Source: Eledone cirrhosa (lineage: Eukaryota). Taken from it: a stretch of 64,000 bases of DNA. The notes below the pieces were generated by a model. It was not told the DNA's origin. It was given only the letters and a program-made list of their open reading frames with translations, and ran no database searches. Of this stretch, positions 13,885-60,743 are shown piece after piece. The position numbers and the translations under genes are program-made. The number at the start of each line of letters is the position of its first letter. The first letter of the stretch is position 1. Location of the stretch: positions 14,942,001 through 15,006,000 of the forward strand of contig OZ024765.1 of the NCBI GenBank assembly GCA_964016885.1, in the 5' to 3' direction.

Positions 13885-14075
13885 GGAACGAGTAGGACCC
13901 CGACGGCTGAGCTCAAGCCGTTTCGACGGCTAATTCAGTCCAGAATTAGCCGTCGAAACGGCTTGAGCTCAGCCGTCGGGGTCCTACTCGTTCATATTAC
14001 CCACTCTACTACCCTAAGTATTGAGTACTTTGGTGCGTTAAGGTCCATCTGTTTCCTTACCACATTTCATTCGTT
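13885..14075 (+). mobile_element. Fold-back PLE-type terminus, family B (HHR 3' half; palindrome centred on the putative stem II)
   Basis: About 52 bp perfect inverted repeat around agtcca. Reads GAAA cggct-tgagctc-agccg TC ggggtc (13955-13983), then a ~85 bp unpaired tail. (TA)n on both sides. Confidence 0.75.
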
Positions 14076-14141
14076 ATATATATATATATATATATATATA
14101 TATATATATATATATATATATATATATATATATATATATAT

Positions 14142-14402
14142 ATTAATAAAAGGAATTCCAACATTGTCTGATTTACTCGTTTTATTTACAATCCTTTAAA
14201 ATGTATAATGGTATTAGAATGAAAGAGTATGGTAGAATATTAAATGTTATGTGTTAATTGAACAAGTACTATCATGCTTTCGCAATCTTCAGGTTCACAT
14301 TCTGTGGTGACAGTCAAGTTTGCAATTTTCAGAGTAAATCAGACAAAGTTGCAATTCCTTTTATTAATATAATCTTCTATACACAATCATACACACCCGT
14401 GT
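14142..14402. mobile_element. Fold-back terminus, family J, with a minus-strand HHR relic at 14259-14297
   Basis: 14142-14178 is inverted against 14332-14368. Minus strand reads tgaac CTGAAGA ttgc GAAA gca-tgatag-tac TT gttca, with stem II collapsed. Tail also at 46647-46719. Confidence 0.6.
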
Positions 14403-14800
14403 GTATATATATATATATATATATATATATATATATACACACACACACACATATATATATATATATATATATATATATATACTTATATATTTGATATATA
14501 TTTTCCTTATCGAGCCCTATTTGGATTTTAGTCTTCAGTTTTATTATTATTACTATAATAAGGTATTATAAAGATATTTTTCATTTATTTATATTGTTAT
14601 TATTAATAAGGTCCAGATAAATTTTGTAGAGTGCTTCAAACCTGTTATAAAATTAACTTTGTTGAATGATAATCAACAAACTTTATAACTCATTGTTTAT
14701 CTCTTTCTCTCTCTCTCTCCCCCTCTCTCTCTCTCTCTCTCTCTCTCTCTCTCTCTGTATATATATATATATATATATATATATATATATATATATATAT

Positions 14801-14979
14801 AATTGTTTCTACTATTGGCACAAGGCCAGCAATTATCCAGTACATTACTGGTACTTTATTTTATCGACCCCTAAGGATGAAAGGCAAAGTTAACCTCGGC
14901 GGGATTTGAACTCAGAATGGCAAGGGTCGTAAATCTATGCGCCAAAGCATGGCGTCCGACCCTCTACCGATACTGCCAA
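14801..14979 (-). mobile_element. tRNA-derived SINE, octopus-type family 1
   Basis: On the minus strand: A-box-like tggcagtatcggtaga, B-box gagttcaaatccc, body ttaactttgcctttcatcctt..gggtcgataaaataaagtaccag, tail ..tagaaacaatt. Confidence 0.8.
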
Positions 14980-15229
14980 AACATCATGATGAGAGAGAGA
15001 GATAGAGAGAAAGAGAAAGAGAGAGGGTATAGAAGTATAGAAGCTGAATCGATAGGTTGGTCACGGCTAGAAGGCCATTGTGCTGTTAAATAAATGCGTG
15101 AGATAAAGTCTGCTTTCTCGTCACGGAAAGTGTCTGGAAATATGACTATTTTTATGACAGGTGCATGCCTGAATGTGATACATGCAGCCATGCATACGTG
15201 CGTGTGCAGTGTTGTGTGACTGCGTGATG

Positions 15230-56110: not shown

Positions 56111-56938
56111 AATTACATCATCATCATTATCATCATCAACAACAGCAAGGAGAGGAAGAGGGACTATTTAATATATATATATAGAGAGAGAGAGATGGAG
56201 CAATTGATGTAGAATATGAGGAACGTCAGGATATAATCGTACCCCCCCCCCCACACACACACACTCTACAAGGTAAAAGATTAGTTTGTACAAACTGAGC
56301 TGCAAGGATTAGAAGCCTTAATGCAAACACACTAACACACACACACACACATATATATATATATATATATATATATATATATATATATATATATATATAT
56401 ATATATATATATATATATGTGTGTATATATATGTGTATATATATCTCCAAGGAGTGTAAAGTGAAGTTAACCTGGGTTCACTATACATACAAACACATAT
56501 ATATATATATATATATATATATATATATATATATATATATATATATATATATATATACATACGTGTGTAGATATATATATATGAATATATATATGTGTGT
56601 ATATATATGTATATTATGTATATGATGTATTTATATATGTTTACATATATACATATATATATTTATATATATATACATATATATACATATATATAATATA
56701 TATATACAGAAACGAAATATATATACATATATATATATATTATATATATATACATATATATATGTACATATATATTTATATATATACATATATACATATA
56801 TATATATACATATACATATTTATATATATATATACATATATATACATATATATATATTATATATATATATGTATATGTATATATATATATATGTATGTAT
56901 ATATATATGTATATATATATATATATATATATACATAT

Positions 56939-57058
56939 AACGAAGGAAGTGTGGTAATGAACCATATGGACCATAACACACCAGAGTACTCAATACTTAG
57001 GGTAGTATAATGGGTAATAGGAAATTGTTTAACCCCGACGGCAGAGCTCAAGCCGTCA
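56939..57058 (-). mobile_element. Family B tail, truncated in HHR stem III, abutting the PLE ORF fragment
   Basis: Reverse complement of ~33460-33571. Confidence 0.75.
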
Positions 57059-57700
57059 TGGAATAGCTTAGATAGGGCTAGACGTAAGATAGGGAAAGCC
57101 ACCTCATAGTACGACAACCAGAGATACCAAAGTTTCATGTTTGTGGACGCTACCCCTGGAGGGAAATTATGCTAACCAGTGTAGAAAGGCCCTGAGAAAG
57201 ACCCACTTAAAGATTAAGGTGGTAGAAAAGCCAAGAACCACCATAAAATCCCTGATCAGCAAAACCTACCCTTTTAAGAAAACCCACTGTACTAATAGGA
57301 TATCTATCATATGTAAGGTAAACCCCCGGATAAACTGTAAAACTGTAAAACTAGAAACGTAGTCTATAGCATAAGATGTACTGAGGGTACTTGCAGAAAC
57401 ATGACAACAACATACATAGGCGAGACAGCTCGAAGCATAGGTGAAAGGATAGACCAACACTTGGGGTAACTAAAAGAACGAAAAAACGTGTCAATTCTAT
57501 ACGAACATGCCAGACAACAACACGACGGTAACATAGACAACATAGAAATTAGAATAATATCTAAACATAGAAATGACCCAGCAGATAGGCAAATCAGAGA
57601 GGCCAGTGAAATAGAAATTAGAAGGCCAAGACTAAACAGAAAGAATGAATGGAATAGCAACAACACCCAAACAAACAACACTGACCTAAGAGAAGTCTAA
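57059..57700 (+). pseudogene. Penelope-like element ORF C-terminus: RT thumb/linker, Cys-rich linker and GIY-YIG endonuclease (Neptune/Nematis-like), disrupted
   Basis: With two frameshifts and two stops: WNSLDRARRK..S*YD..FMFVDATPGGKL/ANQCRKAL..KIKVVEKP..YPFKKTHC..C..C/RNVVYSIRC..C..YIGETARSIGERIDQH..SILYEHARQQH..DRQIREASEI..PRLNRKNEW. Confidence 0.88.
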
Positions 57701-58276
57701 ATAAATAAATAAATAAATAAATAAATAAATAAATAGATAAATAAATAAATAAATACATACACAAGCACAATAACAACAAAAACACATATAAACACACACT
57801 AGTCACCCAATCACGAACACACATCAAACAAAACACTATACACACACGCAAACGCATGCGCAAAGAGGACAACATAAAATGAACAAACAAACAAATAGAT
57901 AAATAAATATATAGACAGACTAAATAAAAATGGCGTAGACATACAATGTAACGGGAGGAAACAATAGCACCACTGACGGTATTGCAGATGTGCAACGAAA
58001 GAACTTTGATAAACTATATATATGTGTTTGTGTCTATATTGTATGTGTATTATTTTTGACCGTCGGTCAGTCAATGGCAACATTGAGGACCGAATAAATT
58101 AGATTACCGATATAAAAGACACAGAAGCGAAAAGCGAAAACCAACCAAACAGTGAGTGTGTTCTGTTATTAATTCTGGCAATATTACACAAATATGACCC
58201 TCCCCAAGTATAACCATATTTGTTTCGACACACGATTTCATATAAAAAACCTCGCAAAAGTTATTCATCGCCGTTA
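57701..58276 (+). mobile_element. PLE family C 3' UTR, terminal repeat with HHR (57964-58017) and 3' tail
   Basis: ca CTGACGG tattgca-gatg-tgcaac GAAA gaac TT tg (A9G). Repeat ends aagtataac at 58214; tail runs on to ccgttata. Confidence 0.8.
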
Positions 58277-60457
58277 TAAATATATATGTATATATATTTA
58301 AAAAAATATATATATATATATATATAAGTATGCATGTATGTATATATAATTATATATATATATATATATATATATATAAGTATGCATGTATGTATATATA
58401 ATTATATATATATATATATAAATATATATATATATATATATATAAATATATATATATATATATAAATATATATATATATATAAATATATAAATATATATA
58501 TATATAAATATATATATATATAAATATATATATATATATATAAATATATATATATATATAAATATATAAATATATATATAAATATATATATATATATAAA
58601 TATATAAATATATATATAAATATATATATATATATAAATATATAAATATATATATATATAAATATATAAATATATATATATATATATAAATATATATATA
58701 TATATATATAAATATATATATATATATATAAATATATATATATAAATATATATATATATATATATATGTGTGTGTGTGTGTGTGTGTGTGTGTGTATATA
58801 CAAGTATATATATTTGAAATAATACATTAAAAAGATATATTTCTTCTGAGAGTAGGAGAATAAAAGCCAAATTCAAAGATAAAACAAACAACCAAACAAA
58901 CAAACAAACAAACAAACACACAAACAAACAAACAAATAAATAAACAAGTAAATAAAAAAAAATCAATGAATAAATAAATCGTTTCATTTCCAAAGTTTAC
59001 CATTCGATAGCATATTGTAGAGAGATCGGTACAGAACTGTAACAATATCGAATTAGATGAGAATACTACTAAAGAAATATTAGGAAACATATTTTTCTAT
59101 AAAAAATATCATATATATATGTACATGTATGTGTGTATGTGTGAGTGTACGTGTGTGTGCATACATATATACATAGATACATATACGTCTACAACAATAT
59201 TTATACATGTATATATATACTCATATATATATATATATATATATATATATATATACATATATATATATATATATACACATATATATATATATATATATAT
59301 ATATATATATACATATGTGTATATATATATATATATACATATGTCTATATATATATATATTTATACATATGTATATATATATACATATGTATATATATAT
59401 ATGTATGTGTATATATATATATATATATATATATATATATATATATATATATATATATATATATATATATACATATGTGTATATATATATATATATATAT
59501 ATATATATATATATATATATATATATACATATGTGTATATATATATATATATATATATATATATATATATACATATGTGTATATATATATATATATATAT
59601 ATATATATATACATATGTGTATATATATATATATATACATATGTCTATATATATATATTTATACATATGTATATATATATACATATGTATATATATATAT
59701 GTATATATATATATATATATATATATATATATATATATATATATATATATATATATATATATATATATATATATATATATACATATTCATATATATATAT
59801 ATATATATAAGAAAACATATTTGAAGACAAGCGTAGCAACACATAAGATGACGGAAAAAATAAACGCCATCTTGTCAAAGCATTTGAGGTTTTGCTCTGA
59901 ACAACCTCGGAAACTAAAGGAAAAAGCATGGCGTTATATAGAGTATGCAGACATATTAAGGTTGTAGCAGGGTTGGCGTAGAGAGATTGATGTGGTGTGA
60001 TATCTCATTAGTAGGTATAAAGGATCGTCCATTGTCAAACGAAGGTGTCTATTTATCTATATCTCCCTATATCTATATCTACCTATATATATGAATGTAT
60101 GTGTATATATATAAATATATATATACATATATACACACACGTATATATATATATATGTATATATGTGTGTGTATATATTTATATATATATATATGTACAT
60201 ATGTGTGAGTATATATATACATTTATGTAAATATTCCTATATATATATATATATATATATATATATATATATATATATATGTGTGTGTGTGTGTGAGTGT
60301 GTGTGTGTCTATGAATATTTTCATAAATGTATTTCCTTATCATTCATACCTATTTTATTTCTTCTCATCTGCGTTTATATATGTATATGTATATATATAT
60401 ATATATATATATATATATATATATATATATATATATATATATGTATATATATATATA

Positions 60458-60743
60458 CGATATTAAATAAATGGAAACTATATTTATAAAACCATATCTA
60501 TTTCACTATATATATTTCAGGGATATCATATTAACAATATGCTATGCCTTCTTCAGACAAAATACAATATAAACAGTTTTATAGATAAATAAATTTGACA
60601 TACCGTATAACATCGACTTGTATTTGAAAAGTTGAATTGGCAGTATTTAATATCGTAAATATACTCCAAATACTTGTCGAGTGCTTTTATATCAGTTATA
60701 AATATTTACTCGCTGTAACCCAACGATTAAAATATAACTTTCC
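60458..60743. mobile_element. Diverged family D copy with a minus-strand HHR at 60499-60564
   Basis: tattttgt CTGAAGA aggcatagcata-ttgttaa-tatgatatccct GAAA tatata TA gtgaaata. Plus-strand tail at 60645-60743. Confidence 0.7.

Follow-up and report, generated by a model that had tools for sequence, protein, structure and literature searches.

Two-armed, one-tailed insertions at (TA)n arrays in the Eledone cirrhosa genome: probable Penelope-like elements and a candidate double-priming origin

In Penelope-like elements (PLEs), an inverted 5'-truncated copy often lies beside the pseudo-long terminal repeat (pLTR), a tail of 30-40 bp is often found at one end only, and an insertion bias towards (TA)n masks target site duplications (TSDs) (PMC8557442; here and below, statements attributed to a paper refer to the accessible portion of its text). 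Here we describe 15 short two-armed insertions of this kind, very probably 5'-truncated PLE insertions, within a 64,000-nt stretch of the genome of Eledone cirrhosa (contig OZ024765.1, positions 14,942,001 to 15,006,000, assembly GCA_964016885.1), hereafter the window. The same layout has been reported in rotifers, for which self-priming was proposed (PMC3846280), and pairs of hammerheads on opposite strands, ~100-700 bp apart, have been found in Schistosoma (PMC4209133). On the biochemical side, a PLE protein for which a dimer is predicted cuts AT-rich DNA on both strands and extends them, and it starts reverse transcription at two internal sites that bracket the tail and lack homology to the cleaved target (PMC11167929, 2024). 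In L1, twin priming yields an inversion with an internal deletion, and dual priming involves two RNAs (PMC2837659).

The insertion architecture itself is already published for PLEs and is not new, and how the inverted pLTRs and the tails at a single end originate is left open by PMC8557442 and PMC11167929. We found no link between twin priming and PLE inverted repeats in the open-access literature: the word "twin" has no occurrence in the accessible text of PMC8557442 and PMC3846280, nor "twin priming" in that of PMC11167929. A genome this dense in short two-armed insertions provides a large natural data set for separating double priming from self-priming, and is also relevant to annotation, as these hairpins mimic miniature inverted-repeat transposable elements (MITEs) and microRNA precursors. 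Our favored reading, held with moderate confidence, is that reverse transcription is primed independently from each of the two cut strands of the TA target, and that the resulting cDNAs are then joined end to end.

Two-armed insertions at (TA)n arrays

The 15 insertions were identified by masked self-comparison and reading of the sequence, and belong to six families, A to F (B, D and E agree with families of an initial annotation of the window; its families A, C and J carry no coordinates and are not matched here, A, C and F being our own labels). Single insertions are designated below by family letter and start coordinate, and their features are collected in Table 1. All 15 combine a tail-bearing arm with an inverted, 5'-truncated, tail-less arm joined to it head-to-head, and in 14 of them (TA)n arrays of at least 10 nt flank both sides. 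A chance screen covered the segments between TA arrays that measure 120-520 nt (54, of which 46 were not of low complexity); 12 of these 46 started or finished with a strong inverted match, compared to none of 920 shuffles (D60458, C31110 and B55216 lie outside this screen, their overlap being too small or their TA flank too short). The fold-back insertions claimed by the initial annotation are thus real, and its coordinates are correct to within a few bases. On the other hand, its description of two tails pointing outward was wrong, as only one arm carries a tail in every insertion (15/15), with lengths of 37 nt in F, 64 nt in C, 68-72 nt in E, 74-80 nt in B and 88-94 nt in D and A. The inverted partner was described there as the shorter arm, but in F14144, D60458 and C31110 the tail-less arm exceeds the other in length.

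The end of the tail-less arm is fixed within families, as had been proposed. In family B it starts with ggaac at 13885, 33381 and 40895, identical in all three copies and joined by one copy of a variant subfamily; in family E the end falls at the same base in three of three copies (27356, 47701 and, reversed, 31084-5); and in family D (27321, 31458, 32519, 46503 and 60458) it occupies the same alignment column in four of the five copies and lies within 2 nt of it in the fifth. The five C-type tail-less ends are likewise identical in position. By analogy, this fixed end very plausibly corresponds to the inner start site of reverse transcription mapped in PMC11167929.

The overlap between the element and the TA target at this fixed end is 3-5 nt in seven of the 15 insertions, 2 nt in two, and at most 1 nt in six, so that the TA microhomology assigned to the boundary by the initial annotation holds for the seven insertions with at least 3 nt and fails, with only 1 nt, in all three E copies. 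A combined p-value of 0.001 calculated for this overlap was set aside, since the copies are not independent and the anchor of D46337 had been mis-parsed (1 nt by eye too). At 32465-32487, an 8-nt unit is present threefold at the tail-less end of a C-type fragment, a stutter resembling several rounds of priming at this site or a telomerase-like realignment. Separately, a CGT/AGT-TATA motif is common to the tail ends of several unrelated families at the TA flank (7682, 14074, 20501, 31420 and 33570), and is perhaps a shared recognition signal.

The central junctions were said to vary between copies. No two are identical, but in families A, B and E they are clustered, and only D varies widely, with stems ranging from 11 to 168 bp. 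The B junctions (4/4) and the E junctions (3/3) each fall within ~15 nt of one spot, located in B at the presumed stem II of the hammerhead; in A the junction coincides with the 5' border of hammerhead stem I. The two arms overlap by 26-168 bp in 13 of the 15 insertions, nearly not at all in D60458 and not at all in C31110, where the junction, read from the sequence, displays a 3-nt microhomology with the loss of ~17 nt. Filler is found at the junctions of B33381 and D60458, and the 6-nt loop of family B occurs in both orientations (13885 compared to 40895). In 14 of 14 cases the stem partner lies 37-95 nt inside the opposite terminus, so that neither terminus is the inverted repeat of the other.

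Comparison of the extent of both arms revealed that in eight of the 15 insertions the tail-less arm carries extra 5' sequence absent from the other arm. This set comprises B33381, B40895, D46337, D60458, E27356, E47701 and C31110, all with cross-copy support, and F14144, for which the support is its hammerhead. The tail-bearing arm reaches further 5' in three insertions, and the remaining four are equal or weakly resolved; several of these assignments are confounded by palindromy, and they are firm only where a second copy backs them.

The arms were also compared within and between copies, as the initial annotation had suggested, leaving aside D46337 and D60458, whose overlap is too short, and families A, C and F, represented by single fold-backs. 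Differences between arms were lower within than between copies both in D (24/388 compared to 129/754, three of the five copies used) and in B (11/180 compared to 72/540, four copies), and the sites at which arms group by copy outnumber those at which they group by arm position by 37 to 1 in D and by 20 to 0 in B.

Finally, a single D arm (32652-32900) was compared with four public sequencing runs. It matched 5379 contigs in run X3 and 28,379 reads in run X8, as well as 48 and 18 contigs in runs X1 and X7 from two other organisms, which were used as evidence of presence only (read counts from restriction-site-associated DNA are not copy numbers). Loose ends in the public reads and contigs run into TA at 32797-32811, which is also where the boundary lies in the window, and 12 of the 15 joints listed, out of 22, are strand switches. 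Since the boundary and the strand switches recur in independent runs, neither the boundary nor the inversions are peculiar to this assembly. In six of the 12 listed strand-switch joints one side lies within the tail at 32825-32830, and this may point to further zero-overlap copies like C31110.

Table 1. Coordinates of the insertions and associated features in the window; for insertions, the strand is that of the tail-bearing arm.
Feature	Coordinates	Strand	Description
Family A fold-back	47..275	-	64-bp stem; 7-nt loop at 5' edge of hammerhead-like core; 94-nt tail
Family B fold-back	13885..14074	+	51-bp stem; 6-nt loop; 80-nt tail
Family F two-armed insertion	14144..14403	+	tail-less arm ~185 nt with hammerhead core; tail-bearing arm ~35 nt plus 37-nt tail
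Family D fold-back	26882..27321	-	168-bp stem; 90-nt tail; arms with hammerhead core
Family E fold-back	27356..27543	+	57-bp stem; 4-nt loop; 68-nt tail
Family E fold-back	30902..31084	-	internal deletion in tail-bearing arm
Family C inversion, zero overlap	31110..31420	+	~280-nt tail-less pLTR arm (minus strand) joined to last ~30 nt of tail
Family D fold-back	31458..31870	+	154-bp stem; 17-nt loop
C-type 3' fragment	31957..32487	+	ends at tail-less boundary; 8-nt unit x3 ahead of TA array
Family D fold-back	32519..32898	+	123-bp stem; tail-bearing arm extends further 5'
Family B fold-back	33381..33570	+	short templated filler at junction
Family B fold-back	40895..41082	+	6-nt loop, reverse-complementary to that of the copy at 13885
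Family D short fold-back	46337..46503	-	28-bp stem; tail-less arm 16 nt longer on 5' side
Family E fold-back	47701..47885	+	tail-less arm ~14 nt longer on 5' side
Family B fold-back, second subfamily	55216..55371	-	8-nt loop
Family B tail-bearing arm fused to family C open reading frame (ORF) remnant	56938..57056	-	head-to-head, no TA between
Decayed PLE ORF end	57059..57670	+	post-reverse-transcriptase (RT) region, cysteine linker, GIY-YIG with two internal cysteines; frameshifts, stops
Family C 3' untranslated region (UTR), pLTR and 64-nt tail	57671..58277	+	degenerate minimal hammerhead (by eye); tail end at TA array
Family D insertion	60458..60743	+	~147-nt tail-less arm; ~40 nt filler; tail-bearing arm ~11 nt pLTR plus 88-nt tail

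Assignment of the elements to PLEs

The coding evidence for PLEs comes from the ORF remnant at 57059-57670, which contains a cysteine linker and a VVYSIxC..C..YIGET core and is followed downstream by a 3' UTR and the pLTR and tail of family C. A C-terminal GIY-YIG with two cysteines in its core is present for this family only, whereas the linker preceding it, expected as CX2-5CxxC, is decayed in the remnant and clearer in a homologue (P0007); the (TA)n bias of PLEs is also observed. A search with an unaltered stretch of 39 residues of the remnant retrieved eight relatives, of which five were scanned against Pfam and three matched GIY-YIG, one of them above the curated cut-off. One of these relatives, an uncharacterised protein of Octopus bimaculoides, aligns with the remnant over 190 aa (E 2e-26), as would fit an octopod host. 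The layout of the remnant fits a Neptune-type element, a placement based on layout and not on a tree, with Nematis or Hydra types as alternatives. The telomerase-related RT core is absent from the window, and a word-index protein search with fragments from the window found none of 31 candidates.

Hammerheads predicted from sequence provide the second marker. A hammerhead descriptor gave 10 matches scoring at least 9 in the window, compared to a mean of 0.1 in 30 shuffles, and the arms of families A, D, E and F hold 10 of the 11 descriptor matches listed. The evidence is weaker in the other two families, as the hammerhead of C is recognized by eye only and B has only the 3' half. At 55328-55371, however, a compensatory change from T-A to A-T is found in the presumed hammerhead stem III of a B tail-less arm, which supports a putative ribozyme in this family. 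A further element, at 7440-7690, has its hammerhead core at 7537 and one end resembling a tail, and is apparently one-armed.

Several results weigh against the assignment. The ORF link exists for family C alone, the other families being provisionally assigned to PLEs through hammerhead, architecture and target. A Pfam scan of the window's own ORF fragment returned nothing relevant. No Rfam hammerhead appeared among the matches listed, 150 of 673 for the window and 35 for the region 30900-33600, all of which fall below the gathering score as repeat or hairpin noise, and free-energy folding of six hammerhead regions was weak (z from +0.2 to -1.7).

Double priming and its alternatives

According to our favored reading, the GIY-YIG endonuclease would cleave both strands of the TA array, after which one 3' end would prime at the end of the tail and the other at the end of the pLTR, sites that would match the pair of internal starts determined in vitro on the Anolis PLE; a few TA-like bases may help this priming. 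Both cDNAs would then extend towards the 5' side of the RNA, often halting near the hammerhead, which would produce clustered junctions and short loops, and their ends would be joined via microhomology or filler. The basis for this reading is the architecture, the fixed ends, the PLE markers and the arm geometry, from which we infer the enzymatic steps. As most arms overlap, the two primings probably drew on separate RNA molecules (dual priming), or else on a single RNA, with strand displacement. The window moderately backs the mechanism of the initial annotation in this modified form. Twin priming at a TA target stands insofar as two separate templated syntheses are needed, yet the arms mostly overlap and the TA microhomology is partial; and the proposed priming at the RNA's 3' end is unsupported, given that both start sites seen in vitro are internal to the RNA in the accessible text of PMC11167929.

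A possible, though rather unlikely, alternative is that the PLE RNA or cDNA folds back and primes itself, and that the endonuclease then resolves the palindromic intermediate asymmetrically, leaving the tail on one side. This is the explanation already published for the same architecture (PMC3846280), the tail being regarded as a product of resolution in PMC8557442. Loops of at most 22 nt in 10 of the 14 overlapping units agree with it and weigh against double priming, because a hairpin intermediate predicts coupled arm starts directly; double priming fits tight loops only if the RNA 5' end, or a point at which RT stops, is common to both cDNAs. The clustering of junctions at the hammerhead edge fits such a shared stop, although the B junctions at the presumed stem II, a possible native hairpin, also suit self-priming, as does the near-perfect center of the palindrome in the D fold-back at 26882..27321. 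In contrast, if the tail-bearing cDNA simply snapped back, the tail-less arm could contain nothing beyond the sequence of the other, which is not so in the eight insertions with extra 5' sequence. C31110 has no palindrome, and D60458 and F14144 would require loops of more than 150 nt. Moreover, the tail boundaries coincide with RT start sites in vitro (PMC11167929), and self-priming cannot yield an insertion made of two families.

Such a fusion is found at 56938-58277, where a B tail-bearing arm is joined head-to-head with a 5'-truncated family C element. TA is present at both outer ends and not at the junction, and the homology of the C ORF begins 2 nt from it (57056). This could be a case of dual priming in trans with two RNAs. 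We tentatively extend double priming to the normal PLE route, in which a dimeric RT-endonuclease would use two RNAs at two fixed sites, joining the cDNAs even across families, with the hammerhead edge setting the stop; this generalization is itself possible rather than likely.

Besides the tight loops, other observations count against double priming. The TA overlap is at most 1 nt in six insertions, and overlapping arms differ from the L1 twin-priming product. Family E gave no contrast within and between copies (3/87 compared to 6/174), so the expected lower divergence within copies was confirmed in D and B only, and the copy-wise similarity of these could have its source in gene conversion between arms or in subfamily structure. 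The joints in public reads sit at reference edges or divergent segments and may be alignment breaks. Lastly, only one B-C fusion was observed, and a later deletion could have produced it instead.

That a preformed palindromic unit, MITE-like or a retro-copied fold-back, was amplified together with its junction is improbable. Such amplification would account for the narrow clustering of the B and E junctions, the TA target and the similar unit lengths (187-190 nt in three B copies, 182-188 nt in E). However, every junction is different, copies of family B carry the loop in opposite orientations, similarity between arms follows the copy and not the arm position, and the termini are not mutual inverted repeats; hammerheads and a PLE ORF remnant are also present. 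For the copies of the window this explanation is largely refuted, and the initial annotation was right in taking them as independent insertion products and not MITEs, with no terminal inverted repeats (TIRs) among them. Slightly less probable still is that one-armed insertions in TA arrays were converted into fold-backs or fusions afterwards, through deletion, gene conversion or the repair of breaks. One-armed copies do occur (A301, F46654 and several C-type ends), insertions are densely nested in the window, and the B-C fusion could have arisen in this way. Rearrangement leaves unexplained, however, why in all families, and also in other individuals, the inverted arm abuts TA directly with a family-fixed end, and why the copy-specific variants are common to both arms. 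A fold-back artefact of sequencing or assembly, conceivable in an AT-rich and repeat-dense window, is highly improbable and already refuted by arms that differ by ~3-6%, unduplicated flanks, element-specific boundaries, and the same boundary and strand switches in independent runs.

Other repeats and comparison with known systems

The window contains several repeats outside families A-F. An abundant SINE-like repeat forms tandem and inverted clusters in ATT/GTT-rich tracts (24121-24900, 34903-35265, 36706-37216, 53813-54300 and 14808-14979); the cluster at 53813-54300 was left out of the insertion count, having inverted copies but ATT-rich ends and no TA flanks. Three copies of a repeat of 500-600 nt, 94-97% alike, share a common end at TA arrays (22503-23104, 26365-26871 and 28447-29051), and small TA-adjacent palindromic segments are located at 41357-41470 and 33150-33290. 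A minisatellite array of ~4.3 kb (8851-13124) consists of 74-bp units with 54-bp variants. On the minus strand, 19887-20405 encodes a C-terminal fragment similar to the RT of long interspersed elements (reading LLYGSETWTLT...), which presumably resembles RTE-type elements.

MITEs that target TA are short, form hairpins and lie in TA, like the insertions described here. Unlike them, these insertions have no TIRs, do not share a common junction, and carry retroelement markers. With metazoan PLE hammerheads and non-LTR (long terminal repeat) retrozymes (PMC4209133; bioRxiv 10.64898/2026.07.22.740005) they share the type I hammerhead with a short helix III, but retrozymes form tandem arrays whereas here the pairs are inverted and possess a tail.

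The head-to-head inversion is shared with L1 twin and dual priming (PMC2837659), the B-C fusion resembling the latter. L1 twin priming is characterized by an internal deletion, variable internal sites, poly(A) and TSDs, whereas in the window the second site is fixed, the arms mostly overlap and there is no poly(A). The L1-type geometry, a non-overlapping inverted pair with internal deletion, is found in one of the 15 insertions, C31110, which is of textbook twin-priming shape, and nearly so in D60458.

PAc, the Poseidon element of Anolis carolinensis (PMC11167929), shares the two defined ends bracketing the tail, the AT-rich target and the use of both strands. It belongs to a different clade, its start sites show no homology to the target compared to the TA overlap of 3-5 nt in seven of our 15 copies, and the steps after the start sites are left open in the accessible text.

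The closest systems are the endonuclease-containing (EN+) PLEs of the Neptune and Nematis types (PMC8557442; PMC3846280). Their described tail of 30-40 bp, a descriptive rather than a strict criterion, fits family F (37 nt) and not families A-E (64-94 nt), and most copies here are minis reduced to the pLTR. On the other hand, the 5' truncation, the inverted pLTR, the tail at one end, the (TA)n target with no discernible TSD, the hammerhead in the pLTR and, for family C, the C-terminal GIY-YIG preceded by a cysteine linker, here decayed, are common to both.

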